A DNA stretch of 47,623 nucleotides from Desulfosalsimonadaceae bacterium (lineage in GTDB: Bacteria; Desulfobacterota; Desulfobacteria; Desulfobacterales; Desulfosalsimonadaceae). The notes below the pieces were generated by a model. It saw only the letters and a list, made by a program, of their open reading frames with translations, did no database searches and had not been told where the DNA came from. Positions 1-18,927 of the stretch are shown here, piece after piece. The stretch lies in the NCBI GenBank assembly GCA_035312245.1, contig DATGCF010000257.1, positions 1 to 47,623 on the forward strand. The letters are read 5' to 3'. The position numbers and the translations under genes were made by a program. Numbering within the stretch: position 1 is the first letter of the stretch; every line of letters begins with the position of its first letter.

Positions 1-846
1 CATCTCCGGATCATCGACATACCCGGGCACAACCAAAGTGGTCATTTCAAAATGAACGCCCTGATCATGCATGGTTTTAAAGGTGTTCAGCACCGGCTGG
101 AGCCGGCCGCCGTTTAATTTCCGGTACAATTTATCGCTGAATGATTTAAGGTTCACATTGGCCGCATCCAGCACCTTACAGAGGGCGAGAAGCGGCTCAT
201 GATTGATAAACCCGTTGGATACCCATAAATTGTAAATCCCGTTCTGCCGGGCGATTTTTGCCGTATCGTGCATGTATTCAAAATACGTGGTGGGCTCTGT
301 ATAGGTGTACGCAATGGCATCCGCCTGGTGGTCCTTTGCTTTTCGGACCACTGCTTCCGGAAAGAGGTCGTAGTGCCGGACCGCCTCCGGCTTAACTTGG
401 GAAATCTGCCAGTTCTGACAGTTCAGGCATCTGAAATTGCAGCCGGTGGCCGCAATGGACAGGGCTTTGGACTGCGGATGAAAATGAAATAGGGGTTTTT
501 TTTCGATCGGGTCCAGGTGGACCGCGCAGGGATTTCCGTAGGCAAGGGTATATAGCTTGCCATTAATATTGACCCGGGAGCGGCATACGCTGCGGTCGCC
601 ATCAGATAGCGCGCAGCTGTTGGGGCAAATGCCGCAGACAACGTTTCCATTTGGCAGTTGATGATAGTAATCGACTTCGCGGGACCATTTCCACGGGGCG
701 TCCGGTGCGTCATTTTTAAAAATCGTCCCCGAAGCATTGGACTTTTTATCCGATTTGGCGGAAACTGGTGCCTGGCAAGGCAGTAATGTGGCCCCGAATG
801 CCAGGGCGCTGGTGGTTAAAAATTTACGTCTGGATATGGATGTCAT
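1..846 (-). CDS. AmmeMemoRadiSam-system radical SAM enzyme (PFL-activase-like), N-terminal 282 codons; the C-terminus lies beyond the window start
   Basis: Hand translation of the minus strand, absent from the ORF track because there is no stop in the window. It reads MTSISRRKFLTTSALAFGATLLPCQA... with a twin-arginine leader, then CGICPNSC, then CNFRCLNCQNW (CX3CX2C radical SAM motif at nt 418-441). The frame is open to nt 1 and ends ...VVPGYVDDPEM. The ATG at 844-846 overlaps the upstream gene stop (824-826). Confidence 0.8.
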   Translation of the reverse strand, partial: MTSISRRKFLTTSALAFGATLLPCQAPVSAKSDKKSNASGTIFKNDAPDAPWKWSREVDYYHQLPNGNVVCGICPNSCALSDGDRSVCRSRVNINGKLYTLAYGNPCAVHLDPIEKKPLFHFHPQSKALSIAATGCNFRCLNCQNWQISQVKPEAVRHYDLFPEAVVRKAKDHQADAIAYTYTEPTTYFEYMHDTAKIARQNGIYNLWVSNGFINHEPLLALCKVLDAANVNLKSFSDKLYRKLNGGRLQPVLNTFKTMHDQGVHFEMTTLVVPGYVDDPEM

Positions 847-2932
847 GGTCTGCCCGTATTAAAATTAAGCTTGCGGTTTTGATGCCGGCCAAAGCCGCTG
901 CCGTCCATAGAATACCCACATAGGGGATCAGCAGCACGCTGGTAATCAGGGTGCCGGCCGCCGCCCCAATTAAATCGGCGGAAAATGATTGAATCGCTGC
1001 GGACTGGCTGCTTCCACGAAGATAAAGGGCCACGGGGAACTGGCAGCCGCAGGCCGCAGACACCATAAATCCGAACACAAGAAAGCTGCCTAAAGGCAAA
1101 TGGTCACCCACTATGTAAACACTGGCAATGAAAAAAAGCAGCAAAGCGATCAGCAGGGCATCGGTTATGATCAGCACCTGGCGCCCATATTTGCGAAGCC
1201 GCTCGCCGAAAACCGCCCCTGGCAGGAGTCCTGCCAGAAAAACAGTGACAATCAGCCCGATTTGGTAATAAATATAGCCAAAAAATATCTGGAATGCAAA
1301 TATCACCAGGATTTCACTGCCCATGGTCAGACACCCGGTGGAAAAAAGGACGAACTCCTCCCGGGTGATGAGGATAAAATAAATCCCGGCCAGCACCGCG
1401 ATCAAGGCCATGAACAGCGTCGGCGAACTGGCATACTGGCTGAACCATTCAGAGAACATAATGCGGATCATGTTCGGGGCGTAGTCCCGGTTGACCGGCG
1501 CATCGCGAATCATCTCATCCTGCAGGCGGTCAATCCGGTTCGCGGTAATATTTCCGTAGAAGTAGCCGTGTATATAAGTGGTTTCAATCCCTTTAGCGGC
1601 AAGCAGATTCGGTATATCCGGACTAAGGGGGGCGTTTCGGCATAGGAAGTATATCCGGTCGCCCGGAAGCATCAGAATGTGCTCAAACTGCGTCTTGGCC
1701 GTCCGGTAGAGCGAGGATATCTTCTGCCGCTGCGCTTTGGAGAGATAGTTGTCAATGCCGCTGACAGAAAACTGGAAAATACCGTCCGGGTTTAAGCGTT
1801 TTTGGGCTAACTCAAAAAACCGGGCCGTATAGAAGCGGTTCAGCTGAAAGGTCTCCGGCTCCGGCAGATTTAGTAGAATAGCGTCATAGCCGTTATCAGT
1901 TTCCTTTAGAAACGCGCGGCCGTCCTGATGGATCACATTGAGGGCGGGTGGTTTTTTGAGCAGATCAAACCGGAATTGTACCTGCGTGATCCGGGGATCG
2001 ATTTCCACATAATCCACTTGTTCGGGCTGGTACTTGGCAATTTCCTTCATGATACCGCCCTTTGCGGAAATCAACAGGATTTGATTGACCGCATCAAGCT
2101 GGGATAAGGGGTAATGGACGGTTTCTTCGGCCAGGGTTAAGTTCTGACTGCTGAATAAGGGCACCCCGTCTAGAAAAAGGGTCTGCTGCCCGTCTGCCTG
2201 ATGCACTTCGATCCGTCCATATCTGGACTCTTCGTAATAGGCCACCTCGCCTTCCATGGGAGCCAGCGACGGGCGTTCGATATAAAGACCGAATGCCAGG
2301 CAGCTGAGGCTCACGGCCAATCCGGCGATAAATGCACTTTTGAGCCGCTTTGGGCGGGGCATCAATAGAAACGCCGCGAGGATTAGCGGCAGGTTGGCAA
2401 AAAAAAGGGCCTGAAACGGGGTTAAGAAAATGACCAGGGCAAAGGAGAATAACGCGCCGCCGGTCACATCGCCGATGTTGTCGGTGATATAGATCCGGGT
2501 GCCCGGGTAATTGGGGATCAGCCTTCCCGCCACACTCAAGCTGTAGGGCAGGGCAAAGCCTAAAACCAGGCAGTATGGGGCAATGGTTAAAAGCGTGTAG
2601 ACAAGCGTGGGGTAAAACCCGACCGATACGCCATGGATAAAGAAGATATCCCGCAGTACCCGGATCGCATAGAGCTCAAGCGGGGATAGCGCCACCAGAA
2701 ACAGCGAGAGCCAGCTGAGTCTCGCCATCGATGCATGCTGGCCGGCTGTTTTGGCCAGCATGGTGCCGATGCCGCCCAACATCAGCCAGTTAAAAAGGAT
2801 CAGGGCAACGACGAATTCATTTCCGTTGAACTGGGACAAAAACTCCCGGATGACCAGGAGCTGGGTGACCACCGAGGATATGCCGGTGGCAATGACAACA
2901 AGGGCGATCAGCCGATCATTTGCGTTCTTCAA
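824..2932 (-). CDS. Polytopic membrane protein with a central spermidine-synthase-like (class I AdoMet/dcAdoMet-fold) domain
   Basis: 702-aa ORF with roughly 7 hydrophobic helices N-terminally and 4-5 C-terminally. The central soluble region (VDYVEIDPRITQV ... DGRAFLKETDNGYDAILLNLPEP ... FYTARFFELAQKRLNPDGIFQF) resembles SpeE-type aminopropyltransferases, but the glycine-rich loop is atypical (SAKGG). It overlaps both neighbours, by 17 nt and 23 nt. Confidence 0.6.
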   Translation of the reverse strand: MKNANDRLIALVVIATGISSVVTQLLVIREFLSQFNGNEFVVALILFNWLMLGGIGTMLAKTAGQHASMARLSWLSLFLVALSPLELYAIRVLRDIFFIHGVSVGFYPTLVYTLLTIAPYCLVLGFALPYSLSVAGRLIPNYPGTRIYITDNIGDVTGGALFSFALVIFLTPFQALFFANLPLILAAFLLMPRPKRLKSAFIAGLAVSLSCLAFGLYIERPSLAPMEGEVAYYEESRYGRIEVHQADGQQTLFLDGVPLFSSQNLTLAEETVHYPLSQLDAVNQILLISAKGGIMKEIAKYQPEQVDYVEIDPRITQVQFRFDLLKKPPALNVIHQDGRAFLKETDNGYDAILLNLPEPETFQLNRFYTARFFELAQKRLNPDGIFQFSVSGIDNYLSKAQRQKISSLYRTAKTQFEHILMLPGDRIYFLCRNAPLSPDIPNLLAAKGIETTYIHGYFYGNITANRIDRLQDEMIRDAPVNRDYAPNMIRIMFSEWFSQYASSPTLFMALIAVLAGIYFILITREEFVLFSTGCLTMGSEILVIFAFQIFFGYIYYQIGLIVTVFLAGLLPGAVFGERLRKYGRQVLIITDALLIALLLFFIASVYIVGDHLPLGSFLVFGFMVSAACGCQFPVALYLRGSSQSAAIQSFSADLIGAAAGTLITSVLLIPYVGILWTAAALAGIKTASLILIRADHDIHIQT

Positions 2933-4391
2933 AATACTGTACCTGATAGGTCAGGACTTCCAAATCCCCCTTTTTCCATTCATTCCCCGGCAATCCGGCT
3001 TTCAGGCAGAGATGGGACAGAAACATTTCCTTATCCGGGAGCTGCTCCCAAACCTGCGGAAGAAAGGTCGAACTATACATGCCTTTTCGCAGAATCACGC
3101 CGTCTACATGCAGCCGAAGCTTGGCCAAAAGATCCTCCGCATCCTTGTATTCAAGGGGCTGGGGCTCTGTCAGCAGGCTAACCTCGATCACGATCTGATC
3201 CAATTCATCCTTGGAAAGGGCCGGAAAGCGGGGATCATTAAACGCGGCATTCATCGCGTTATCTTTAACTCCTTCCTTCAGCGGTTTATCCGGCAACAGG
3301 TTGCCGATACATCCCCGAAGCTGATCATTTTTGGTCAGGGTGACGAATGTGCCCCGACGAGACTGAAAAATATCATCTGATAGACGCGACTCGACATCCG
3401 CCGCCTCATCCGGTTCAACACCCAGCCGCTTGGCAATGGTCTGCCGCGCCAGCTGCACGAGCTGTTGGCCTTTTTCTTCGCTCATTTCATTTGATTGTGT
3501 CATAGACTCCTCTCCGTAAAATGCAATGGCAGCGTAACCAACGACCTGCTGACGGGAGCCGGCAGTGTCCGCGCTGTTCTCATGAAAAAGCAGCACAGGT
3601 TTCCATTTATGCTGTTTGGCCAGATCGATCAGGACCCGAAGCGGCGTCACACCGCACGCCCGATTGCTGCCATCTGCCAAATTTTTACCATTTAAATTTA
3701 ATATCATGTTTATCGTCTGGCGGTCCCGCCTATTGGCTTTTGCATATGAAAGATAATGCGAAAGATCCGTGCTGACAACCAAAAGGCTTGTATCCGCATA
3801 GATGCTGTTAATAGCTTCAGCGTATTGCTTGATGTTGCCCGGGCCCAATACTATCGGTATCAACTGGAATCCATTGAGCTGGGTTTGGAGAAACGGCAGA
3901 ATTACTTCAATGCTGTGCTCCTTTTGATCGGATGCCAGTACATGCCTGAAGCAGTCAAAACTGTTCCGCAGTTTGGCCGCATCCGGGTGCAGGTCGATTC
4001 GTCCCAACGGGGTTTTATATGCTTTCGCATTACTGATGGCGCCATTTTGAAACCCTACGCGGTGATCAGGCCCTAATATGATCGCTTTTGAAAAATTTGC
4101 ACCGGTCAACGTCCGGGCCGCATGGGCGGCCGTGCGGCCGGAATACACATACCCGGCATGGGGCATCACCAATGCTTTTAATTTCTTTTTCGCCGGGGTT
4201 TGAATGTCTGTCTTCCGGGCCTCTTCTAAAAGCTCCTGTATTTGCTGATGCAACTGCTCTGAATCGGCAGGATAGAATTTCCCGGCAAACACGGCCTCCC
4301 GGATGCCGCCCGCATGAAGGGGCTCTGCGCTGAAAAAGGCGAATAAACTTAGCACTATAAATATGTTAACTATTAAGAGGTTGATTTTCAT
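2916..4391 (-). CDS. Fusion of AmmeMemoRadiSam protein B (Memo-like) and protein A (AMMECR1 domain), with an N-terminal Sec-type signal peptide
   Basis: 491 aa. It starts with MKINLLIVNIFIVLSLFAFFSAEPLHA, followed immediately by the Memo-type start (AGKFYPAD ... MPHAGYVYSG ... STDLSHY). The C-terminal half has the AMMECR1 signature (GTFVTL ... LRGCIGN ... DPRF). Confidence 0.8.
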   Translation of the reverse strand: MKINLLIVNIFIVLSLFAFFSAEPLHAGGIREAVFAGKFYPADSEQLHQQIQELLEEARKTDIQTPAKKKLKALVMPHAGYVYSGRTAAHAARTLTGANFSKAIILGPDHRVGFQNGAISNAKAYKTPLGRIDLHPDAAKLRNSFDCFRHVLASDQKEHSIEVILPFLQTQLNGFQLIPIVLGPGNIKQYAEAINSIYADTSLLVVSTDLSHYLSYAKANRRDRQTINMILNLNGKNLADGSNRACGVTPLRVLIDLAKQHKWKPVLLFHENSADTAGSRQQVVGYAAIAFYGEESMTQSNEMSEEKGQQLVQLARQTIAKRLGVEPDEAADVESRLSDDIFQSRRGTFVTLTKNDQLRGCIGNLLPDKPLKEGVKDNAMNAAFNDPRFPALSKDELDQIVIEVSLLTEPQPLEYKDAEDLLAKLRLHVDGVILRKGMYSSTFLPQVWEQLPDKEMFLSHLCLKAGLPGNEWKKGDLEVLTYQVQYFEERK

Positions 4392-4541
4392 GGTATTATA
4401 ATTCCTAATGGTGTTGGCTCCTGGCCCCTGAAATCACCAAATTATCCAAAATACCATGCAATCTTGTCAAACAAAAATATTGCGGAAATCTAATGGCCAT
4501 CCTATTATTTGCTGAAACCTTTTCAGAACTAGGCTAAGTGC

Positions 4542-7367
4542 ATGAAAAAGCGCCTGATTATCCTGAAATTCGAGTCAAGTGAGGATTTCTGCCGGTACTA
4601 TGAAACAATCCAGCAGAAACGGCTGTTTTTGCCTTCTCGTTCCGCCATCGCCACTGGCACCCCGCTTGTTATCTCCCTGATTATCCCGATGGTCAATCGC
4701 CTTTTCTCTTTGGAGGGGAGTGCCGAAATACATACAGATTTAGTGACTGCCGGCATACAGGTCAATCTGGATGAGAGTTTTGATGACTTTATGTATGAAC
4801 TTGACACTGAACTCTCAGCACATGATGAATATGCCCGAAAATTGAACTGTGCGCCTTTCTTTGAAACGCCGATAAGCGAAACCGATGACGGCGAACTCAC
4901 CCTGGACTTGGATTATGGCAAGCGTATCGGCGTTGGTGGCAATTTGGAGACTTCCGATCCTGAACCGACGACCGAGCCATCTGAACCGGCGCTGCCTGAA
5001 ACAGAAAAGAAGCAGAAATATAGCGCCGAATCGGCCGATGATGAACCGTCAGATACGGCCAAGGCACCAGCCTCTTTTGAATGGATCCGCGAAGTCGTCT
5101 CTCATGAAGAATATGAAATCGAGGCCGACGCACCGCCTGAAGATCACGGCCAGGCCGTTCACGATAAAAAGGATTTGACTGCGGAAGAGCGGCAGCGGGT
5201 GGAGCCCGTCGGGCAGTTTACTATGAATTTCACCAAGGCGGTTCTGCGGAGCGGCTATTATGATCCGGACCATCCGGGCGCGGTGTCAGCTAAGCAGGGG
5301 CTTTACGAAGAATTTCAAAAAGTGCTCTTTGATACCCGGGAACTGATGATCACCAAGGAAGAAACCCGCGAGCATGTTGACTTTATGATCACCGGCATCC
5401 TGGATCTGCCGGTCACCGTCCGCACGGTCGTAGGGCAGGGGGTGGCTGAACTATTTGCGCCCAAGCTGCATGAGTATTTTGAGAAAAAGGAACTCATCAG
5501 CCTGGCGATCAAAAAAGAGATTACTAACGAACATTTTGAAAAATTTATTGATATCATGAGCGATCCCAAAGTGGACCGCTCGGAAGAGCGCACGCCCGGT
5601 CAGATTTTGACCAATGCCCTGGTCGAACAGGAGATCTCCGAAATTTCCGCCATATTCTTTGATGACCGGTTAAACCTTGAGAAGGATCTGCCGTGGCGGG
5701 TTGAAATGGCCATGCACCGTTTAGCCAAAGATCTCAAACTGCTGCCCATGTTCAAAGGCACGGAATCGGATATTGTCTCCCAAATCAAGGAGCAGTCCAT
5801 CCAGGATATCATCCGCCCTTTAAAGCATCCCAAACTGCTGAACGATTTTCTGGTCAACTGCTATATTATCGCCCAGCATATCGAGAACATGGAGCCGCGG
5901 GAGATCGAACAGATCATTGTGGACGCTTTTCCGATTGATATGCTGCTGCCCACCTCCAATTATACATTTGAAGAGCTTGACCGTCTGAATGCCATGAAGC
6001 TTGAGTATCCGGATAGCAGTATTGTTGACCGGAGACTAAAGGGCATCAAGCGTATCCTTAAAATGGTCGCCCGACGGGTGGTGATTGAAAAAGCCAAAGG
6101 CGGCCAGAATTTTTTGGCCCATTTGTATGATAACCAGATCCTTACCTTTGAAGAGCTTCCGGCAGACGCCCAGTATGTCATCAATACGCGGGAAATGGCG
6201 CGGGATGTTAAAAACCATTTTACCAGTTATTCCCAAGCCATGCGAAGCGCAGATGATGTGGATGACCTTGTTGTTTTTTTGAAGTGTTTTCGACGGATCA
6301 TGCCGCTTTTGATTGAAGAAAAGGATTGGAAGCTTATTGTGGACATTTCCCAGGTAATCGAAAAAAGCGCCGATAGATTCCCGCATCCCAAAAATAAATC
6401 CATTGACGCATTGGCGGCCGAGACGGTTTACTTGAAAGTTGATAAAAACAAGGATGCCTCAGTTGCTGATAAAAATGAGACCGTACAAAGCGCACTTGAC
6501 TATGTATTCATGGATCAAACCCATACTCTGGCCCTGGCTTATGAAACGGTCGCTCCTGAAGAACGAAAAAATCTGACCCCCATCTTTGATTGTCTGGGCT
6601 ATTTAGGGGTTGAAACACTGGGCCGGATCCTGGCGGATACCCAGGACCGCCAATTGCGGGGTCATATCGTCAACTGGCTGATACAAAAAAAGGCCGCCGC
6701 CCGGAAATGGGCGCATCGCATTTTGAATGAGCCGAATCGCATGTGGTATTTGTACAGAAATGCCATGCTCATCCTCCGGGAAGTGAGCAATGATCCCGCA
6801 GATGCCGACAGTATTCGCCCGTTTCTGGATGATGCCAACTCCCGGCTGAGGCTTGAGGCATTAAATGTCATTTCAAGCCTTAAGCCCGGGGATTTGGAAG
6901 CCTTAATCATCGCCTCGATTGGGGATTCAGACTCCCGGATAAACTGGCGGGCGGTAAAGGCGCTGGGCGAGCTCCCATCCATCAGCAGCAGCAGCATTCA
7001 AGAGATTCTCGGCCGCCTCACCCTTGAACCCCAGGATCCGGACAATGCATCCGGACATTTCAGACATGTATCCCTTCTGATCAGTGCCATCAATGGATTG
7101 CACCAGATTCCCATGCGCGGGCGTATTGAATCCGATATTATCCGGCTCGGCGAACAGATCGCCTTTAAGGACAAAAAATGGCGGCAGTTTTTAAAGCGCG
7201 CGGTGGGCGCCGAAGACGCGTCGGTGATTCTAAAGGCCGCTATCCCCCTGCTTGGCCGCATCGGCGGATCGGATGCCCAGGTCTTTCTTAAAAAGCTCTT
7301 AAAAAGCCGGCCAGACCTCTCTTCAGCAATCAATGAGGCCCTTGAAAGCATTCAAAACCGCGCTTAA
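4542..7367 (+). CDS. Large uncharacterised protein with a degenerate PilZ-like N-terminal barrel, an acidic linker and C-terminal HEAT/ARM-like repeats
   Basis: 941-aa ORF. The N-terminus (KKRLIILKFES...RLFLPSRSAIATGTPLVISLIIP...LEGSAEI...GIQVNLDE) follows the PilZ beta-barrel pattern but lacks the RxxxR motif. The C-terminus has HEAT-like repeats (LRLEALNVISSL..., DSDSRINWRAVKALGEL). Confidence 0.45.
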   Translation: MKKRLIILKFESSEDFCRYYETIQQKRLFLPSRSAIATGTPLVISLIIPMVNRLFSLEGSAEIHTDLVTAGIQVNLDESFDDFMYELDTELSAHDEYARKLNCAPFFETPISETDDGELTLDLDYGKRIGVGGNLETSDPEPTTEPSEPALPETEKKQKYSAESADDEPSDTAKAPASFEWIREVVSHEEYEIEADAPPEDHGQAVHDKKDLTAEERQRVEPVGQFTMNFTKAVLRSGYYDPDHPGAVSAKQGLYEEFQKVLFDTRELMITKEETREHVDFMITGILDLPVTVRTVVGQGVAELFAPKLHEYFEKKELISLAIKKEITNEHFEKFIDIMSDPKVDRSEERTPGQILTNALVEQEISEISAIFFDDRLNLEKDLPWRVEMAMHRLAKDLKLLPMFKGTESDIVSQIKEQSIQDIIRPLKHPKLLNDFLVNCYIIAQHIENMEPREIEQIIVDAFPIDMLLPTSNYTFEELDRLNAMKLEYPDSSIVDRRLKGIKRILKMVARRVVIEKAKGGQNFLAHLYDNQILTFEELPADAQYVINTREMARDVKNHFTSYSQAMRSADDVDDLVVFLKCFRRIMPLLIEEKDWKLIVDISQVIEKSADRFPHPKNKSIDALAAETVYLKVDKNKDASVADKNETVQSALDYVFMDQTHTLALAYETVAPEERKNLTPIFDCLGYLGVETLGRILADTQDRQLRGHIVNWLIQKKAAARKWAHRILNEPNRMWYLYRNAMLILREVSNDPADADSIRPFLDDANSRLRLEALNVISSLKPGDLEALIIASIGDSDSRINWRAVKALGELPSISSSSIQEILGRLTLEPQDPDNASGHFRHVSLLISAINGLHQIPMRGRIESDIIRLGEQIAFKDKKWRQFLKRAVGAEDASVILKAAIPLLGRIGGSDAQVFLKKLLKSRPDLSSAINEALESIQNRA

Positions 7368-7387: not shown

Positions 7388-8245
7388 CTAACCGGGCCGC
7401 TTTTCGTGGATCATCATGCTCCCGGTGGGGCAATCCGTGTGGGCGGCCACGACCGGGCATTTGACCTTAAAAATGAAGAAAATATGCTGGTCTGCGTCTG
7501 ACAGGGACTCAAAGTTGCCCTGGCCCTTTGCCACCACCAGGTCGGCATCACCAAAAGCCTGCTGAAAGGCTTTGCTGCATTGAGACAAAATAGTGCCGGG
7601 CGCATCCGATCCATTGTCCATTACATCCACTATTTCCGTCATACCGGTGGACTCCGCATCCGCGCGTGTGGCATCATTGATGACCGGGCCGCCGCGGACC
7701 ACATAGGTAATATGGTCGCGCTCAAGGGTTTCAATAAGAAGGCGGTCAAAAACGATTTCCCCGGCATTGTCGCCTAAAAACAGGATGTTTTGGGCAGATG
7801 CCATGGCCTTTTGAAATGCGCTGATATCCCCCTCCAGGGTTTGGGTCAGGGACTTTTCAATCACCGATGCGACTTCCGCCTGATTGACGGACTCGGCCAC
7901 CCCGAAGTCAATGATGTTTCCCGCAATGGAGAGGCGGATGGCGGTTTCAAGCGGGTTTGCCGACTGCGCAATCGTTTGTTTCAGTTGCGGATAAAGTTCC
8001 ATTCCGAACTGATTGTATTGTGTTTTGACTGAATCATAGGGATCACGGCTGCCCGTGGCCTCCCGGATGATCTGGTGAATCCGCTGTCCCATCATGGGCG
8101 GGGGCTGATTGAGGTTTAATTTCGCGGCATCGGCCAGTACGCGTCTTAGCACATGTTCATGGACGCCGGTCTCCGAGGTCGCAAGTCTTGCGGCATTTAA
8201 CGCCTGTTTTAGAAAACAGGGGATACATTCGTGATAGGTCTGCAT
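7388..8245 (-). CDS. DUF89 / ARMT1-like damage-control phosphatase
   Basis: 285 aa. It has the N-terminal CIPCFLKQ motif, LFLGDNAGEIVFD, and the KGQGNFE signature typical of DUF89 subfamily I. Confidence 0.8.
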   Translation of the reverse strand: MQTYHECIPCFLKQALNAARLATSETGVHEHVLRRVLADAAKLNLNQPPPMMGQRIHQIIREATGSRDPYDSVKTQYNQFGMELYPQLKQTIAQSANPLETAIRLSIAGNIIDFGVAESVNQAEVASVIEKSLTQTLEGDISAFQKAMASAQNILFLGDNAGEIVFDRLLIETLERDHITYVVRGGPVINDATRADAESTGMTEIVDVMDNGSDAPGTILSQCSKAFQQAFGDADLVVAKGQGNFESLSDADQHIFFIFKVKCPVVAAHTDCPTGSMMIHEKRPG

Positions 8246-8291: not shown

Positions 8292-9221
8292 CTAAAAGCG
8301 CTTCCGATAAGCCATAAACCGGTCTTTGACCGTAGCCATGGCCGATGCGTCCGAATAGTTTTTGAGCTGTTCATAACACCTTTCCAGCCGGGCATCCAGC
8401 GGCGGGTGGGTGGAAAACCAGGATCCCTTATGCGTGGCTGATGCCTGTTTTTCCTTTAGCATTTCCAGTACCCGGATCATGCCCCGCGGGTCATAGCCGG
8501 TGCGGTAGGCGAACTCCATGCCGGATTTGTCCGCTTCAAACTCCATGTTCTTGTCAAGGCCCTTATCAAAAAGCACGGTTTGAAGATCGCCGATCATCGA
8601 TCGATATTTTTCGCCTTCCTCGCTGTCCATGTTGATGGTGCCGATTTTGCCCAGCCCCTCAAAAAATTTGGCCCGGCGGATGGACTGCAGGGCATGCTTG
8701 TGCGAGACATGGCCCACCTCATGGGCCAGTACGCAGGCAAGTTCTGCTTCATCCGACATTGACCGAACCAACTGGGCGCTCAGAAAAATAATCCCGCCGG
8801 GACAGGCAAATGCATTGTATAAAGGGCTATCGACGATGACAAAATAGTAATTGATATCCGGCCGGATCGAATTTTTAGCCGCCGCTTTGCCGAGCACATT
8901 GACATATTCCTGGAGCTTTTGATCCTTTACTGGCAGTCCGTACCGCTGGAAGCCTTCAAGGGCCAGACTTTCACCAATATGGAATTCGGTTTCATAATCA
9001 ATACCCGCCGCACTCTGGGCGATGCTGCCTATCCCCTCCATCGCCTGTTTGGCCTTCTGGATATCCTCGTTTTTGCCTTCCGGATCAAGCATTTTAAAAA
9101 GATCCATGGCATAGGCCGGGGTGGCCAGCCCCAGCGCCAGGGGGGCGGCCAGTTTCAGAAACTGGCGGCGGGTCTGATGGTTTTGATGATTGCCTTTTTT
9201 ACCCATAATCATATCCCTCAT
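8292..9221 (-). CDS. M48-family zinc metallopeptidase with a Tat-type signal peptide
   Basis: 309 aa. The leader is TRRQFLKLAAPLALGLATPAYA, and the HEVGHVSHKH (HExxH) motif sits in an M48/BepA-like context. The start lies 2 nt after the upstream gene stop. Confidence 0.8.
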   Translation of the reverse strand: MRDMIMGKKGNHQNHQTRRQFLKLAAPLALGLATPAYAMDLFKMLDPEGKNEDIQKAKQAMEGIGSIAQSAAGIDYETEFHIGESLALEGFQRYGLPVKDQKLQEYVNVLGKAAAKNSIRPDINYYFVIVDSPLYNAFACPGGIIFLSAQLVRSMSDEAELACVLAHEVGHVSHKHALQSIRRAKFFEGLGKIGTINMDSEEGEKYRSMIGDLQTVLFDKGLDKNMEFEADKSGMEFAYRTGYDPRGMIRVLEMLKEKQASATHKGSWFSTHPPLDARLERCYEQLKNYSDASAMATVKDRFMAYRKRF

Positions 9222-9223
9222 CG

Positions 9224-9757
9224 TTACTCGGCATATTCACCGACATCTCCCTTTTTTAAAAACGACTCGATTTCATTTTTTAAGATCGACATGGAAAGCA
9301 CCTGATCCAGCGCTTCCCGGCTTTGCTTCGGGGTGCCGGTTTTTTCCGCATACGCTTGGGCCTCAGGTGAGAGTCCCCGGATACTGCGGGCGCTGTCAGC
9401 GGCATCGGTTTCAACCGAGCTGCCGCCTAAACCACCGAGTAACCCGCCAAGCCCGCCCCCTTCATCCTTTTTTTCGCCCTCTGGGACGTCGGGTTGGATA
9501 TCAGACACCTTCCCCCGGTAGACCCAGCCGGTTTGGTCATCTTTGGTGGTCACCTGATACCAGCGGGATTCATATTGCTGAACCGAAAGTTCGGTCCCCC
9601 GTTGCAGTGTGGTAATGGTATCAGAAGAGATTGAGCGTTCGGCCTTTAAATCCGCGCTTTCCGAGGTAACCCAAAGGGTTTCCTGGGCAGCCGCAGAAGT
9701 TACCACGGCCAGGCAAAACAGAATTAGATAAAAAATCGGTTTAATGCGTATTTTCAT
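9224..9757 (-). CDS. Secreted bacterial SH3-domain protein with a Gly-rich linker
   Basis: I prefer the internal start MKIRIKPIFYLILFCLAVVTSAAAQE (ATG 9755-9757, AGGGGG Shine-Dalgarno upstream) over the track start at 9853, which would overlap the CHAT gene. The SH3_3-like core is LWVTSESADLKAERS...GTELSV...WYQVTT...GWVYRGKVS, followed by GGGLGGLLGGLGG. Confidence 0.7.
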   Translation of the reverse strand: MKIRIKPIFYLILFCLAVVTSAAAQETLWVTSESADLKAERSISSDTITTLQRGTELSVQQYESRWYQVTTKDDQTGWVYRGKVSDIQPDVPEGEKKDEGGGLGGLLGGLGGSSVETDAADSARSIRGLSPEAQAYAEKTGTPKQSREALDQVLSMSILKNEIESFLKKGDVGEYAE

Positions 9758-9785
9758 TTTGCCCCCTGATTTATGCAGCTTCTCA

Positions 9786-12700
9786 TCATTTAAAATCCCC
9801 CACCAGCGTAAACGCCCCCCAATAGCCCGGATGGGGATACCGGTCTTTGACATGCCGGGCGGCGGCGCGCAGACTGTCCGCCTTATTGTTTTCCGTATAC
9901 CGGCGGTAGAAAGTCTTAATCAGCATGGCGGTAGAGACATCGCTTACCCGCCAGAGGCTTGAGATGATCGTATGGGTACCGGCATAAAAAAACGACCGGT
10001 TCAGACCAATGATTTCATCTCCGGCCTTTACTTTACCCAGTCCGGTCTGACATGCACTTAAACATACCATATCTGCCCGAATATCCAAGCCGAAAACTTC
10101 AGCTGCCCGCAGATCCCCGTCAGTTTTGATGTTTGTAAAGCTTTGTGCATCTGCCGCCCGGCTTAGCTTGATGGCAGACATCAGCGGATTGATGGGATCA
10201 AACTCCCCGTGGGAGGCGATGTGGATGATATCAAACCGGGCGATATTTTCCACCACCCAGGCTTCAGTCGCCTTGTCCCGGGTGAGGAGGGTGATTTCCG
10301 GAAAATTCCAGTGAATGGAGTTGACCTCCTGCTCGGCAAAGGGCAGCTCCAGCGCCGGATTGCCCAGATCCGGGTTGCCGATGGCAAGGACCTCAAGCTG
10401 GAGCTTTGGCCGCTTGATCCGCCGGGGCAGGGTGTAGTCGAGCACACTGGCGCTCGGCAGATAAAAGAGCGAGAATCGGTCAACCAGAAAATCTCCTCCG
10501 CTATAAAGGGTGGCAAAGGATAGATAATGCAAAGACCCGTGGGGGATGATGCCCACGGTATGGATGCCCTCAAGTGCGTCCCTGACCGGTGCGATCAACC
10601 GGTCGTAGAGCTTGCTGGAATGGGTCTCATAGGGCTCCAGATTTTGAATGATCCGCCGGTATTCAAGTACCCGGCTGTTTAACCGGTCTTGATCCGACGG
10701 GATGCGGAAAAGCTGGATGCGGCCGTCATCTGAGCCCGTGTTTGTATTTCTCAAAACCCAGCACAGGATTTCATTATCCAGCACATAATAGGACAAAAGA
10801 GCGGCCCCCGCCTCCAGGCGCCCGACAATTTTATCGGCACTCACCGGAGGGATGGAAATAAGTGTCGAAAGCCGGGGATGTTTGGCCTGAATATCGAGCA
10901 TCAGGTTTTGCCGCTCATTTTTGAGCTCTTTGAGCCCCTCCTGGTAGGCCTTGACTTCAGCCGTATTTTCGGCAGTGGCCAGAAGCTGTTGGGTGGCCTC
11001 GATCTCGCCAGCCAGGGTGGCTTGTTTGTCGTAGAGCTCAGCTTCAACCTTGCTTCCCAACGACACCCGCTGAGTGCCCAAAAGGTCGATAAAATTTCGG
11101 GATCGGGACCGCTCCGCGATTTCAAACGCCGCTTCTGGTTTTTCCATATCCGCCAGCAGCTTGACCAGATCTTTATACACGTCAAGCCGGTTTTGCATGA
11201 AGTTTTCCTTAAGCTCTTTTACTTTTATGGCCGAGCGCATGGACTCGATAATTTCAATCGCATCGCGAAGATAGGCGGCAGCCGCATCCTGATTGTTTTC
11301 AAGCCCAAGGCGCACCCGGCCCAGGCCGTAAAGCGCCCGCCAGTGGGTTTCCTTTATCCGCATTTGCGTTGACAGGTTAAGCGCCTGGTCATAGGCACCT
11401 TTGGCGGAGTCATAGTTATCCAGGGCGAGCTGCGCATTCCCCTTGCCCAGCAATGCCTTGGCCGCGTTTATCTGGTTGCCGATGGCATTGGATAACCGAA
11501 ACGCTTCATCAAAAAGCGGCGCCGCGGTCTTGGGCTGGTCCATTTTCAGATAGGTCAGCCCCTTGTTCCGATAGTCATAAGCCATGGCCCATTTGGATTG
11601 GAGCTCCGTATCAATGGCCAGGGCTTGATCAAAGATTTCCAGGGCTTTCTCATAATCGCCCCGCTCCCGGTGCACCAGACCGATATTGTTCAGCGTGGAG
11701 GCGACTTCATCCGGCCGGATATCAAGCTGCCGAGCTTGTTTTAGCGCGATTTCCATCTCGGTCAGGGCTTTTTCGTAGTTGCCCAGAGACCACCAGATCA
11801 GCCCGGCGGTATTTTTCGAGATCACTTCCAATAAGGGATAGTCCTGGTTGGCAGCCAGTTGATAGCACTCCCGCTGAAGTTTGAAGGCCGTCTCAAAATC
11901 GCCCTGAAACCAGGCGTTGTTTGCCTGTTCGATGATAATTTTCGCTTTAAGCCGCCGTTCTCTGGCTGTTTTGCCGGAAACCATGGAAAACGCCTGCTCA
12001 TAATGGGTCTTGGCTTTGGGGAAAACACCCAGCAGGCGATAGCATCGGCCGATATTCAGTCGGGCTTCGGCGGTTTTTTCCGGGTTGCCCATCTCCTTAT
12101 ACAGGGCAAGCGATTTTTCATAGTGGCGGATGGCCTCAGGGTAGCGGTTTAAGCGGAGATCATGGATGCGGCCGATGTTTAGATGCTGGGCGGCAAGCAT
12201 CTGGCGGTCATTGATGTCCCGGCTTAATTCGGCCGCTTTTTGAAACCGGCTTAGCGCGGATTCATAATGGGTGGCATTCTCCAGAACCACCCCCAGATCC
12301 TTCATGGCGGCGGCCAGCTTCTGATCCGCGCCCAGCATGGAAAACATATCCACTGCCGTCTCGATCACCGGCACGGCCCGGTCATATTGGCTTTTCCGGG
12401 CATGGATGAGGCCCAGGGTCAGCATGGCCTCGGCATGGGCGCGGCTGTCCGGCTTTTCGGCTTCGAGTATTTCTGTAAGTTTCTCTGCAAACGTAAGCGC
12501 CTTTTCCAGATGTCCCGCCTGATAGGCGGATTCCCGGCCAAACTGGTACAGGGCCGGCAGGTATTGGCTGTAATCCGGAACCTTAGAAGCGATGGATACG
12601 GCATGCTCAAAATTGACCAGCGCTTCTTTCGGGCTGCCGTTATCAAAGGCTGAGCGGCCGGCCTTGATATAGGCAATAAAGTTTTTTCTGGCAAATTCGG

Positions 12701-15700
12701 CGGATTCATCCGGTGTCATGCCGGCATCCCCGATATAAAGCGGCCGGAAAGGTTGGCCAGCCATGGCAATGGCATCAAAGGGGGTCATCTCCATATATCC
12801 GCTCAATAAATCCGCAATCCGGGTCTTTTCCTCGGAAAACGGCTGTTTAAGCAGGATAAGGCTCGGGCACCCGTAAATCGCAAACAAATGGGCGATGCGA
12901 TCGATTTCCGATGCCGGGGGATTGGATACAACAGATAGCGTCAGACTTGAAGTCTGCGAAAGCAGATCCGTCAGAGGCAGACGCTTTCCAGATCCCGTAT
13001 AAACCGCCAGAAACGATTCGGCTGATTCCCCGGCATTGGTGGGGACGGTCGAAACCCGGGCCAAAGCATGAGGCATGATAAGGGTATTTGCGGCGCTCAG
13101 CGTATATGAATCATTGACAGCGGACCGGTCTGCCCCGTCTTCCCAATTCATGACCTTAAACAGATCCGCCAAACCGCTTAAACCGAACTCATCCGATATG
13201 CTGAGAAGATGCTGTTTAAAGGGTTTTTTACTGGAAAGACAGCGATACAGATGAGTTCCGCTTAAGGCCTGCGGACAGGGTTGTTCCGGATCAAAGGCCA
13301 ACGGGGCTTCATAGGCAATATAGGCCGACTGTTCAGGGTCGAATTCAGACAGAGTTTGTTTGATGGCATCCATATTTTTGGCGGTATTAACAGAAAGGCT
13401 CTCCGGTGTCACAATGAAGACCATGTATGCAGGCTCGGGCCTGCCGGTGGGAAATATCCGGAGCATGGCCTCGTCCTCTCCCAGGGCATCCATTACATCC
13501 ATTGCCTCGGCGGGCCGGGGGCTTAAAAAATCCATAAAATCCGATGACATAACGCTGTCGCCGTTTTGGATGCGCGCCGGGAGGGTGCGGCAGGTGGAGA
13601 TAAGCTCCTCATAGCGCGAGCGAAGCCCGGAAAGTTTATCCATATCCGGATTTTCCGACTGGTTTTCTGCTGCCAGTTGATCAGCGATTTTTTCCGCCTG
13701 AATGGACGCACCCAGGATCATCATGACTTGGTGTTGGGTGTCTTTGTTTTTAATTTGCCGGATAAGATCCGGCAAATTCTCGGTCTCAGATGCCAGAAGC
13801 GACTTTTCACGGTCAAGCCGTTCTTTGATATACGGCTTTCTATCCGGATCCGCAGCATCCAGTTCGGTTTGATAGGTGCGTATCCGCTCAAGCCGCGGAT
13901 ACACATTCTCATAAAATGCGGCTTCGTTTTTCCCGGCCGGCTGGATATGCTCTGCCGTCCGGTTGAAGCGCTCCAGTTCGGCAATTTGTTCGGCCAGGTT
14001 AAAGGCGGCTTCCGCGTTTTCCGTTTTAAGCGTCTTGAAAACCAGCGGGCTGAATGGGTTTAAAATTTCCATGGACTGACAGCCGGCCCGGGCCGGGCTT
14101 ATATTCCGGAGCACGGAGAAGGCTGCTTCAAGCCGCCCCAGTCCGGCAAGGGCCCGCCATTTGTAATCCGGAAGGACGCCTTCTTCCGCGGCGGAAAGGG
14201 CTTTTTCAAAATGTTCATCCGCTGTTTGGCTTTCTTTCAGCCGATGGGCGAGGGCTGCGAGATTCAAATTCAGCCGGGCTTGAACTGCATAAGCCTCCCG
14301 GGCCGGCTGCAGGGCCGTTTGCCCGCAAAGTTCAAGGCCTGCCGTAAAATGGCCGGCCGCAAGGATGAGGCGGTTCATCTTCTTAACCGCAGCGTCGGCA
14401 TCCGCCCCAAACAAACGGCCGGCCGTCGCGGCATAGGCCACGCCCATGTGATTGTGGTATTCAGCCAGGCGAAGGGAGTTTTGGGTGGCAGCCGAGGCCT
14501 CAAGCAGGTCCCGGGTCTTACCATCCAGGGCCTCAAATCTTTTTATCCGGGTATCTGTCAACCCGCGGCCCGGCTTTTCCGTTGGGCGCATGGCTTCCAT
14601 TCCCGCGGCCATGTTGGTAAGATTCATGGCCGCGCTGACCGGGGCCTGCATTTTAAGACAGAGCTCAGCTGAATAGGCGAACCGGTCAAAGGCTGTCTCC
14701 GGCTCGTCCATGGCATGGGCCAGAAGTCCGGCCCGGTGATAAAGAAGCGCCACGCCGTAGCGGTCGTTTTCGGAAACGGTATCGCCCATGGGGTATTCGT
14801 CTAACTGTTTGTCAATATGGGCGCGGGCGGCCGCCAGGTCCCCCAATTCAAGACGGATGCGTGCGATAAAAGTTTCCGCCAGGCGCTTTTCCTGGACTTC
14901 AGAGAATCCGTGGGCCGCCTCAGTGGCGCCCGAGGTATCCAGGGCGGTTTGAAAGGAAATATCGAAGAGGGCCTGTTTTTTCTTTTTCTTCTTCTCCGGT
15001 TTGGGCACTCCGTGGGCGTTGATCAGCTCCGGTACCTTTTGGAACTCTTCGGCAGCGGTTTCAAGCAGGCGCCGCCGCTTGGCCCCGGTAAAGGTCCGGG
15101 CATGGTGATAGGTGTTATAAGCGACGGCCCGCCGGTTTCTGGCCAGATTTCGGGTCAGGCCCTGTTTTTGATTGAGGAGAAACGCTTTCTTAAATGCAAC
15201 AACGGCACATTCCCAATCTTCAAGTTCCTGGCACACAAGCCCCAGCCGGTCGGCCATTTCCGTTTTAAGGGTGACCAACTGTTCCGGCAAGGAAAGGGCA
15301 GACTCGATTTTTTGGGTCATCGAACCCAGCGTACCGGCAGGGTTATCCATAAACGCCCGGCATTGCCCGTCAGCACATGCGGTATTCACTGCTTCGGCGA
15401 GGTCGGCCGCGGATTTATTGACCGTCCGCTGCTTATCCAGCATCTGCTGGATGCCGGACTTATATTGGTCCCACGCATCACTTGGCGGCGCTTTGGCAGA
15501 ATTGGCGAGTTGGGCCACCTGGTCACTGATTTCCGCCTGGTCTTTGGCAATGGTTTTGGCGCGGGCTTCCAATCGCGGGAGTTTAAGGGCCGGGGCAATG
15601 ATCCGGTCCCGGACCAGCCGGTGCAAATGATCAAAACTTTTGGCAGCAGTCAGCGGCGCCATCCGCTGATCAATTTTGTCAAGTGCCCGCGTATACGCGG

Positions 15701-18341: not shown

Positions 18342-18907
18342 GATCCATCTTCAGCCTGTATTTTGACCCCTTCGGCCGCATTTTCAGCATGAATCCCGGC
18401 AAAGACCTTCTGCACCCGGGGCATATCCGATTCCTTTAAATTTTCATTCATATAAATCACGCGTTCCATAAGGACCTTTCGGGCGGAATTGACCCGGGAG
18501 ATCACATAATCAAACTCGGATTCCGAAAACCGCTCGGCAAAAGGCTTCAGATCCGCAGGGACATTTCCCTTTTTCATGGCAAACGGTTCAATATAGCCCT
18601 GGTTGTTCTCCCCGACCCAGCCCAGCCGCTTGAATGCTTCCAGATCGTCGGCATGAAAATCAAGGGTCTGCATGGCGGTGATGGCGTCTTTGTATTCCCG
18701 GCTGTGCCTGGGCGGCTCGCTGATTGTACCGCTTTCATCCACCCCTCTGACCGATGCGGCGAGAAGCATTTGGGCATCCAGGGAGTTATAAGTCCCCAGT
18801 ACCTGATTTTCCAAAGCGGTGCGTTCGCTCACCATTTCCACGTTGACCTGTGCCAGCGTGCAGCCGGTGAGAAGCGTCAAAAGCAAAATACAGATTGCCT
18901 GTTTCAT
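18317..18907 (-). CDS. Lipoprotein with a YdbL-like (DUF1318) domain
   Basis: 196 aa with the lipobox LLTGC. The motif KRLGWVGENNQGYIE and the C-terminal GVKIQAEDGSWKTK resemble the DUF1318/YdbL pattern, from memory rather than a search. Its position directly after a YdbH-like gene mirrors the E. coli ydbH-ynbE-ydbL order. Confidence 0.45.
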   Translation of the reverse strand: MKQAICILLLTLLTGCTLAQVNVEMVSERTALENQVLGTYNSLDAQMLLAASVRGVDESGTISEPPRHSREYKDAITAMQTLDFHADDLEAFKRLGWVGENNQGYIEPFAMKKGNVPADLKPFAERFSESEFDYVISRVNSARKVLMERVIYMNENLKESDMPRVQKVFAGIHAENAAEGVKIQAEDGSWKTKNAS

Positions 18908-18927
18908 GGGATGATTCCTTCCAAATT

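Follow-up and report, generated by a model that had tools for sequence, protein, structure and literature searches.

Can a radical S-adenosylmethionine (SAM) system work at the outer face of the inner membrane? This question is raised by a three-gene locus at the start of contig DATGCF010000257.1 (47,623 nucleotides [nt], here called the window in its full length) from a Desulfosalsimonadaceae bacterium. The locus encodes a Memo-AMMECR1 fusion protein, a 702-amino-acid (aa) membrane protein, and a radical SAM enzyme (rSAM) of the AmmeMemoRadiSam type. To our knowledge, radical SAM enzymes are treated as strictly cytoplasmic, since SAM and low-potential reductants are cytoplasmic. An earlier note on this DNA had left two readings of the apparent export leaders, either a misleading topology prediction or an extracytoplasmic or membrane-associated role. 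The conserved leaders on both soluble partners, the difference in hydrophobicity between them, the predicted periplasmic position of a spermidine synthase (SpeE)-like domain in the membrane protein, and the depth of its partnership with rSAM favor the second. We consider it probable that the locus encodes an envelope-located variant of the AmmeMemoRadiSam system, consisting of three translationally coupled proteins whose catalytic domains come together on the periplasmic side of the inner membrane.

A conserved three-gene cassette

The three open reading frames (ORFs) lie in a row on the minus strand within positions 1-4391 of the window:

2916-4391, minus strand: Memo-AMMECR1 fusion (AmmeMemoRadiSam proteins B and A in one chain), 491 aa, ATG start
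3519-4301, minus strand: Memo domain, fusion residues 31-291, with the motifs PHAGY, GPDH, DLSH, and RACG
2931-3464, minus strand: AMMECR1 domain, fusion residues 310-487, with the motif LRGCIG
824-2932, minus strand: inner-membrane protein, 702 aa, TTG start, 14 predicted transmembrane (TM) helices
1-846, minus strand: AmmeMemoRadiSam-type rSAM gene, first 282 of 389 codons, cut by the window start
583-636, minus strand: N-terminal Cys motif CGICPNSC...C, rSAM residues 71-88, probable auxiliary metal or Fe-S site
418-441, minus strand: radical SAM CX3CX2C motif CNFRCLNC, rSAM residues 136-143

The full 389-aa rSAM gene is present on an ENA metagenome contig with the same sequence (L001:11542-12711). 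Curated profiles bear out the family assignments of the earlier note. TIGR04336 (Memo-like) and TIGR04335 (AMMECR1-like) matched the two fusion domains at 238.6 bits (cutoff, 26) and 208.1 bits (cutoff, 99), respectively. TIGR04337 reached 216.7 bits on the truncated rSAM of the window against a cutoff of 220, and 345.9 bits on the full-length protein P0001, which is 98% identical to it. The three families and the Memo-AMMECR1 fusion are already known (PMC2034487; NCBIfam names); the fusion, which the earlier note took to be unusual, is not so in itself, having been reported in 2007.

Adjacent genes overlap. The stop of the fusion gene and the start of the membrane-protein gene share 17 nt (2916-2932), and the stop of the latter and the rSAM start share 23 nt (824-846). 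Both sizes agree with the earlier note, which took them to imply co-translation; what overlaps of this kind indicate is translational coupling. The N terminus of the membrane protein, MKN.N[DE]R, is kept among homologues.

When the alignment of the 702-aa family was used to scan the GTDB collection, with one genome for each species, relatives of the membrane protein were located at 432 places. Cassette counts refer to the best 80 of these, which are Desulfobacterota metagenome-assembled genomes (MAGs) except for two contigs labeled otherwise; this is the phylum in which the earlier note had proposed to look for co-occurrence. The order fusion, membrane protein, rSAM was kept wherever the flank was long enough, with one clear exception (L031, see below), and Memo and AMMECR1 were fused at every locus with a readable junction (about 75 of 80). 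The overlap between fusion and membrane-protein genes measured exactly 17 nt in 67 of 71 loci, and the membrane-protein and rSAM genes overlapped in 61 of 75. These junctions are strong evidence, drawn from gene layout, that the genes are translationally coupled.

Clustering of all ORFs of the best genome loci yielded no further conserved gene. Directly downstream of rSAM, just beyond the window start, lies a gene for a 179-aa 3D-domain (PF06725) protein with a lipoprotein-like leader (L001:12812-13351). As a core component it was rejected, since it occurs in only 12 of 81 loci, the closest ones. The same cassette, at 59% identity, was also seen on a 5-kb contig (L043, JAIWHJ010000169.1) in a "Promethearchaeota archaeon" MAG; the contig is probably a Desulfobacterota binning contaminant.

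Export leaders on both soluble partners

The earlier note had proposed a signal peptide ahead of the Memo start and a twin-arginine leader on rSAM, and both were recovered:

4311-4391, minus strand: general secretory (Sec)-type signal peptide MKINLLIVNIFIVLSLFAFFSAEPLHA, fusion residues 1-27, cleavage site LHA/GG
757-846, minus strand: twin-arginine leader MTSISRRKFLTTSALAFGATLLPCQAPVSA/K, rSAM residues 1-30, with the motif S-R-R-K-F-L, a mildly hydrophobic core (h-region), and a VSA/K site

The fusion leader begins with MK, and its AxA-type site, LHA/GG, lies three residues ahead of the Memo model start. The curated family models start after the leaders, at residue 31 of the fusion and residue 59 of rSAM, and solved homologues (archaeal AMMECR1-like proteins and human MEMO1) align from their own N termini to post-leader positions. 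Relative to the canonical families, both N-terminal stretches are thus extra.

Of the 120 best rSAM homologues, which are 65-98% identical and come from Desulfobacterales and Desulfosalsimonadaceae MAGs, 115 have an [RK]R-x-F/L-type motif close to the N terminus; at least one homologue, P0065, carries an annotated Tat signal (PF10518; Tat, twin-arginine translocation). On the side of the fusion, every protein with a complete N terminus at the genome loci has a hydrophobic leader, and 56 of 64 have an [AVSGTC]xA site no more than 14 aa from the Memo start, (I/V)R...AG.FYP. By these counts, both leaders are conserved. The recurrence of the cassette at the 80 best loci, with its 17-nt junction and the twin-arginine motif kept at the frequencies given above, is more than chance.

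The two leaders also differ in kind. Among the 64 loci from which both could be extracted, the mean Kyte-Doolittle hydropathy of the h-region, taken as the most hydrophobic 12 residues of the leader, was 1.40 for rSAM versus 2.74 for the fusion, and the rSAM leader was the less hydrophobic one in 63 of the 64 pairs (Wilcoxon p = 4e-12). Cristobal et al. reportedly found, in 1999, that Tat signal peptides are less hydrophobic than Sec ones. The pairing of leaders matches the expected logic of a cofactor-bearing passenger exported by Tat and a cofactor-free one by Sec. In an alignment of 24 diverse representatives of the Tat-leader rSAMs, the CX3CX2C motif and the Cys positions of the N-terminal CxxCxxxC...C motif are invariant. 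A C-terminal four-Cys motif is also present, and because all Cys ligands are invariant, these proteins should still be cofactor-bearing SAM enzymes and thus typical Tat passengers. A lipobox (LLPC) within the rSAM leader was considered and rejected, because Pro at position -1 is unfit for a lipobox.

It could be argued that this is an ordinary cytoplasmic AmmeMemoRadiSam operon whose leaders are overextended starts or chance hydrophobic N termini. Such an operon would agree with the absence of leaders from curated models and solved homologues, and with the subthreshold scores of two Tat signal profiles (given below). It would not explain why the leaders are kept as protein sequence over dozens of species-level genomes with a nearly invariant arginine pair, why AxA sites fall at a fixed distance from the domain starts, why the rSAM start that overlaps the membrane-protein gene is conserved, or why the two leaders differ systematically in hydrophobicity. 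We regard this explanation as extremely improbable.

A membrane protein with a SpeE-like domain

The 702-aa protein, annotated by NCBI as "hypothetical protein," is laid out as a 6-TM repeat A, TM7, a SpeE-like domain, TM8, and a 6-TM repeat B:

2282-2911, minus strand: TM1-TM7, residues 8-217; TM1-6 form repeat A, and TM7 is predicted to lead the chain to the outer face
1433-2260, minus strand: spermidine synthase-like Rossmann domain, residues 225-500, predicted to be periplasmic
857-1426, minus strand: TM8-TM14, residues 503-692; TM8 is predicted to bring the chain back to the cytoplasmic side, and TM9-14 form repeat B

Hydropathy gives seven TM segments, a soluble domain of 285 residues, and seven further TM segments. 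An AlphaFold2 model built with 60 homologues (predicted local distance difference test score, 84.6; predicted template modeling score, 0.84) likewise places seven helices ahead of the SpeE-like domain, at residues 4-34, 39-66, 69-97, 106-138, 144-169, 172-190, and 199-218. Profile-profile comparison with hhalign aligned residues 11-197 (TM1-6) with residues 527-699 (TM9-14) at a probability of 98.2% and an E value of 3.6e-14. The repeat was revealed by this comparison only: BLASTP gave no significant match between the N- and C-terminal TM blocks, neither of which matched a Pfam family. Judged by these profiles, the protein is a parallel 6+6 repeat, an architecture that many secondary transporters have. 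Since TM1-6 are homologous to TM9-14, TM7 and TM8 would serve only to put the SpeE-like domain on the opposite face.

The distribution of charges points the same way. With the N terminus inside, close homologues carry on average 18.0 Lys and Arg residues per protein in short loops predicted to lie inside versus 3.8 in outside loops, and 28 homologues of 25-30% identity carry 19.1 versus 4.2. The charge bias and the layout of repeats and extra helices are thus two independent lines of reasoning that predict a periplasmic SpeE-like domain.

The SpeE-like domain shows the motifs LLISAKGG, YVEIDP, QDGR, and NLPEPETFQLNRF. PF01564 (Spermine_synth) matches residues 269-387, and the top 30 Foldseek matches of the domain are all aminopropyltransferases (spermidine, spermine, and thermospermine synthases; best E value, 3e-10). 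The earlier note's description of a polytopic protein with an AdoMet/dcAdoMet-type fold between the two partners is therefore well founded. Alignment with human spermidine synthase shows that the 702-aa family has retained the Glu that binds ribose and the Asp that binds adenine. The catalytic DSSDP motif is replaced family-wide by NLP(E/D)P, so that the equivalent of D173 is Asn and that of D176 is Glu in the window protein (NLPEP); this stretch belongs to a longer family-specific motif, NLP(E/D)PxTxQxNRF. The GGGDGG loop reads SA(E/K)GG in the clade of the window (SAKGG in the window itself) and GGGxGG in distant homologues, with the Asp absent. Going by these residues, and despite its SpeE fold, the protein does not belong to the canonical aminopropyltransferases.

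One might nevertheless suspect an independent membrane-bound polyamine aminopropyltransferase that is merely located in the operon. The SpeE fold, the matches to PRK03612, speE, and PF01564, and the JGI label "spermidine synthase" on homologues would fit this. However, all speE equivalog scores fall far short of their cutoffs (53.1 against 249.55 bits for TIGR00417, 67.8 against 260 for PRK00811, and 101.9 against 472 for PRK03612), and the catalytic motif and the loop Asp are lost as described. The "fused MFS/spermidine synthase" model NF037959 was passed marginally, at 42.4 bits for a cutoff of 40, over residues 147-419 only. Moreover, the association with rSAM holds at 25-30% identity and in different gene orders, and the 17-nt coupling is conserved. 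An unrelated enzyme of polyamine synthesis is highly improbable on these grounds, and we take both it and miscalled starts to be effectively excluded.

The partnership in the wider rSAM family

A sensitive search with P0001 among 1.84 billion cluster representatives yielded 150 relatives of 37-51% identity. Sixty-seven of these have the classic cytoplasmic form, starting right at the core, and 13 carry long N-terminal fusions. A Tat-like leader was found in 28 of the 119 classifiable representatives of 50%-identity clusters (20 under a stricter filter). Leader status is phylogenetically coherent as far as nearest neighbors tell: for 27 of the 28 Tat-type representatives, the nearest neighbor has a leader or a fusion.

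The fusions combine rSAM with DsbD_2; with DsbD_2, FMN_bind, and Fer4_5; with FMN_bind, with or without Fer4_5; or with a beta-propeller or CBM11 domain. Fusions to DsbD_2, FMN_bind, and NapH-like Fer4_5 modules are represented by P0242, P0244, P0248, P0259, P0262, P0263, and P0265; the FMN_bind domain of P0248 has the flavinylation motif DxxSGAT, and one of the seven is an 835-aa triple fusion of signal-Memo-AMMECR1-rSAM. Systems for extracytosolic electron transfer are typically marked by FMN_bind and NapH-like PF12801 modules (Meheust et al. 2021, PMC8238504); radical SAM enzymes go unmentioned in that study. Given these fusions to redox modules, the clade as a whole appears to be wired to the membrane. 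The sidedness of the fused rSAM domains deduced from flanking charges is conflicting (outside in P0259, inside in P0242, ambiguous in P0263 and P0265) and is not relied on here.

When metagenomes were scanned with four distant Tat-type rSAMs as seeds, 80 loci were obtained in which rSAM is 40-54% identical to that of the window. Every rSAM tested from this set exceeded the TIGR04337 cutoff, and 54 of the 80 loci have a Tat-type leader on it. In 29 of these 54, the gene directly beside rSAM encodes a homologue that matches the 702-aa protein over nearly its full length at 25-30% identity; this is probably an underestimate, many contigs being short. All 30 Memo homologues with a complete N terminus in this set have a hydrophobic leader, and 14 of the listed loci have neither Memo nor AMMECR1 within 7 kb. 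Where Memo and AMMECR1 are absent, the pair of rSAM and membrane protein is accompanied by DUF362 (26 of the 54 Tat-type loci) and secreted DUF6599 (12 of 54). At six leaderless, mostly archaeal-type TIGR04337 loci, we found no SpeE-like membrane gene; Memo and AMMECR1 are mostly not adjacent there, and the neighbors are PCNA, tRNA-guanine transglycosylase, RNase J, or tRNA synthetase.

Judged by these neighborhoods, rSAM and the SpeE-like membrane protein are old and tight partners within part of TIGR04337. Since the membrane-protein neighbor persists at 25-30% identity, in some loci without Memo or AMMECR1, it is a real fourth component, as the earlier note had suggested.

Two groups are worth noting. 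In a distant clade (L101, L104, L105, L112, L114, L126, L131, L136, L137, L140, and L150), a Tat-leader TIGR04337 rSAM is directly followed by a SpeE-like 14-TM protein and accompanied by DUF362 and secreted DUF6599. Neither Memo nor AMMECR1 lies within 7 kb, and the clade may represent a separate system that has not been described. Three loci (L164, L165, and L167) belong to leaderless TIGR04337 proteins of DPANN-like archaea, which have an LTD-domain protein besides the information-processing neighbors just listed, a context wholly unlike that of the exported form.

Does rSAM act outside the cytoplasm?

Several observations weigh against an envelope location of the complete system. We know of no SAM or sufficiently low-potential reductant in the periplasm. 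SAM binding by the SpeE-like domain is not assured, given the degenerate glycine-rich loop (SAKGG) and the replacement of a catalytic Asp by Asn. One of the best genome loci, L031, is a clear exception to the conserved order, with no rSAM gene within 6 kb. On the rSAM leader, the Tat signal profiles TIGR01409 and PF10518 scored 16.3 bits (just below the cutoff of 16.7) and 14.9 bits (cutoff, 22.7; E value, 0.027), respectively; the call of a Tat leader therefore rests on the motif and its conservation. Other rSAM relatives have Sec-like leaders without the arginine pair, or are Memo-rSAM fusions behind a Sec-like signal. A Sec-like leader on an Fe-S rSAM is hard to reconcile with Fe-S insertion before export.

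Eight metagenome loci that form one clade add to these points. They combine a leaderless rSAM (start MAKTV...) with the same membrane protein and a Memo-AMMECR1 protein whose lipoprotein-type leader ends in Cys (...SIGC, ...TSGC, or ...NGC). The membrane-protein gene lies directly upstream of rSAM where the flank suffices, and Memo-AMMECR1 lies downstream; the order membrane protein, leaderless rSAM, Memo-AMMECR1 was read at L107, L108, L115, L120, L138, L143, and L149. Read most simply, rSAM is probably cytoplasmic in this clade and Memo-AMMECR1 probably periplasmic. The clade shows that rSAM need not be outside in every variant, and it suggests that the system can span the membrane.

This raises the possibility of a split transmembrane arrangement in the window as well, in which only Memo-AMMECR1 is outside and rSAM is kept at the cytoplasmic face. 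Its twin-arginine leader would then be an uncleaved membrane anchor or a chaperone-binding remnant, and the 14-TM protein would pass a lipid or small-molecule intermediate from rSAM to Memo-AMMECR1. Besides the leaderless clade, DsbD_2-rSAM fusions such as P0242 speak for it: a very basic linker comes right after their final TM helix and suggests a cytoplasmic rSAM domain. The split arrangement also requires neither periplasmic SAM nor a strong reductant. Vestigial twin-arginine motifs do occur on cytoplasmic proteins, such as NarG and NapF. Remnants of this sort, however, normally lack an h-region and a cleavage site, whereas the clade of the window keeps a complete Tat signal (SRRxFL, a low-hydrophobicity h-region, and an AxA site) in nearly all homologues. 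The split arrangement also leaves unexplained why a SAM-type fold should sit on the predicted periplasmic side. We judge this main rival unlikely for the window, at a level that still deserves consideration.

A separate gene for a 218-aa DsbD_2/DsbD_TM membrane protein occurs at seven loci (L119, L121, L124, L127, L135, L145, and L155), most of which have an rSAM with a Sec-like leader lacking the arginine pair or a Memo-rSAM fusion. As a common denominator, it is safe to say that the whole branch works at the membrane with Memo-AMMECR1 outside. That rSAM itself would be outside in the clade of the window rests on the quality and conservation of its Tat signal.

A possible mechanism

In the envelope-located variant that we favor, the Memo-AMMECR1 fusion would be exported by Sec and its leader cleaved at LHA/GG. 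The rSAM would fold and acquire its Fe-S clusters in the cytoplasm and then follow the Tat route by means of its SRRKFL leader. The 702-aa protein would stay in the inner membrane as a 6+6 TM transporter-like scaffold, with the SpeE-like domain on the periplasmic face, so that the three catalytic domains could meet at the outer face of this membrane. There, rSAM might abstract hydrogen from a substrate that is embedded in the membrane or belongs to the envelope, and the product might be processed by Memo and AMMECR1. The 702-aa protein could export an adenosyl-sulfonium cosubstrate and hold it through the SpeE-like domain, or it could present the substrate. Sulfate reducers typically have low-potential redox proteins in the periplasm, and these may supply the electrons; in relatives, rSAM is fused to dedicated membrane redox modules (DsbD_2, FMN_bind, and NapH-like).

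A lipid or isoprenoid-type molecule seems the most plausible substrate, because it would be reachable from either face of the membrane, which would reconcile the Tat-type and the leaderless clades. Burroughs et al. (2019) reportedly linked Memo contexts to "aliphatic isoprenoid modification." It is tempting to speculate further that radical SAM catalysis takes place outside the cytoplasm, with a Tat-exported TIGR04337 enzyme that, at the periplasmic face, receives SAM or a SAM-derived cosubstrate from a dedicated 6+6 TM exporter, whose SpeE-like domain holds the cosubstrate there, and modifies an envelope lipid, possibly an isoprenoid, together with Memo-AMMECR1. This specific scheme is possible and is offered tentatively.

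Neighboring genes in the window

A promoter-like site about 50 nt upstream of the fusion ATG is a candidate for the operon promoter, as a consensus match only:

4441-4470, minus strand: promoter-like site, TTGACA, 18 nt, GATAAT, 11 of 12 matches to the consensus

Divergent from the cassette lies a gene for a 941-aa HEAT-repeat protein (4542-7367, plus strand), followed by an ARMT1-like gene (7388-8245, minus strand); neither is kept beside the cassette in other genomes. An M48 zinc peptidase (8292-9221, minus strand) has a twin-arginine-like leader, HQTRRQFLKLAAPLALGLATPAYA, the second Tat-looking leader in the window, and an SH3_3 protein comes after it (9224-9853). A 2,851-aa ORF (9786-18341, minus strand) combines PD40 (WD40-like beta-propeller) repeats, many TPR repeats, and a C-terminal CHAT (caspase-like) domain, and it has envelope-related gene neighbors. 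In the interval 18317-22671 (minus strand), a DUF1318 protein precedes a 1,247-aa AsmA/YhdP/DUF748-like protein. The AsmA/YhdP/DUF748 family has been linked to the movement of lipids between inner and outer membrane, which makes for an envelope context, but one that is not conserved with the cassette. Farther along, a 478-aa protein (26425-27861, plus strand) fuses a diadenylate cyclase (DAC) domain to YbbR repeats and thus unites the domains of a CdaA-like cyclase and a CdaR-like regulator in a single chain.

Implications

The strictly cytoplasmic view of radical SAM enzymes is challenged by the existence of a large and conserved clade in which rSAM bears a canonical Tat leader, and the challenge is deepened by partners that would be coexported and by a membrane protein whose SAM-type fold is predicted to face outward. 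It raises the question of how SAM and electrons are supplied to the periplasm of anaerobes. The locus also bears on the old problem of the biochemical role of Memo and AMMECR1, both of which have disease-linked human homologues. An envelope-located version argues against RNA modification, at least in this branch, and points to a membrane or envelope substrate. A previously "hypothetical" family is now named as an obligatory fourth partner and is open to deletion, purification, and assay.

In the searchable literature, which does not cover Burroughs et al. 2019, we found no description of export leaders on AmmeMemoRadiSam proteins and none of a periplasm-facing SpeE-like 6+6 TM partner; the latter may have been described in that paper. 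Links of rSAM to DsbD_2, FMN_bind, and NapH-like modules are likewise not described in the searchable literature. Should the tentative scheme given above hold, with an envelope lipid as the substrate, this would be the first extracytoplasmic radical SAM pathway, and the Memo and AMMECR1 families would gain their first concrete substrate class.

Comparison with known systems

Among Tat-exported Fe-S proteins, such as hydrogenase small subunits and the ferredoxin-type subunits of periplasmic formate dehydrogenase and DMSO reductase, the closest likeness to rSAM lies in the S/T-R-R-x-F-L leader, the mild h-region, the AxA site, and a passenger with multiple Fe-S clusters. Like these proteins, rSAM comes from a lineage rich in Tat-exported redox enzymes. 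Unlike them, the passenger here is a radical SAM enzyme, which would need its SAM cosubstrate outside the cell. We found no precedent for a Tat-exported radical SAM enzyme in the searchable literature; in the nearest case found, the HXS system, the radical SAM enzyme is cytoplasmic and only its product is exported by Tat.

With spermidine synthase, of which PRK03612 is a membrane-anchored type, the membrane protein shares the Rossmann fold and the N-terminal beta-hairpin (Foldseek TM-score of about 0.65-0.7, target normalized). Unlike in SpeE, the domain sits between two 6-TM repeats, is predicted to be periplasmic, and is linked to a radical SAM enzyme instead of polyamine genes. Extracytosolic electron-transfer modules (FMN_bind flavinylated by ApbE, NapH-like PF12801, and DsbD) are fused to rSAM relatives of 45-51% identity; unlike those relatives, the operon in the window encodes no such module.

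The closest known system is AmmeMemoRadiSam itself, with the Memo-AMMECR1-rSAM contexts reportedly treated by Balaji and Aravind (2007) and Burroughs et al. (2019). Its three families (TIGR04335, TIGR04336, and TIGR04337) are all present here, adjacent and in one operon; the Memo-AMMECR1 fusion is a known arrangement (PMC2034487), and rSAM has the PFL-activase-like core with CX3CX2C. For the leaderless archaeal-type members, the information-processing neighborhoods fit the old idea of RNA modification, which they do not do for the variant described here. Unlike the proteins behind the family models and the solved homologues, both soluble partners in the window carry export leaders, and between them is inserted a fourth, translationally coupled gene, that of the 14-TM SpeE-like protein.

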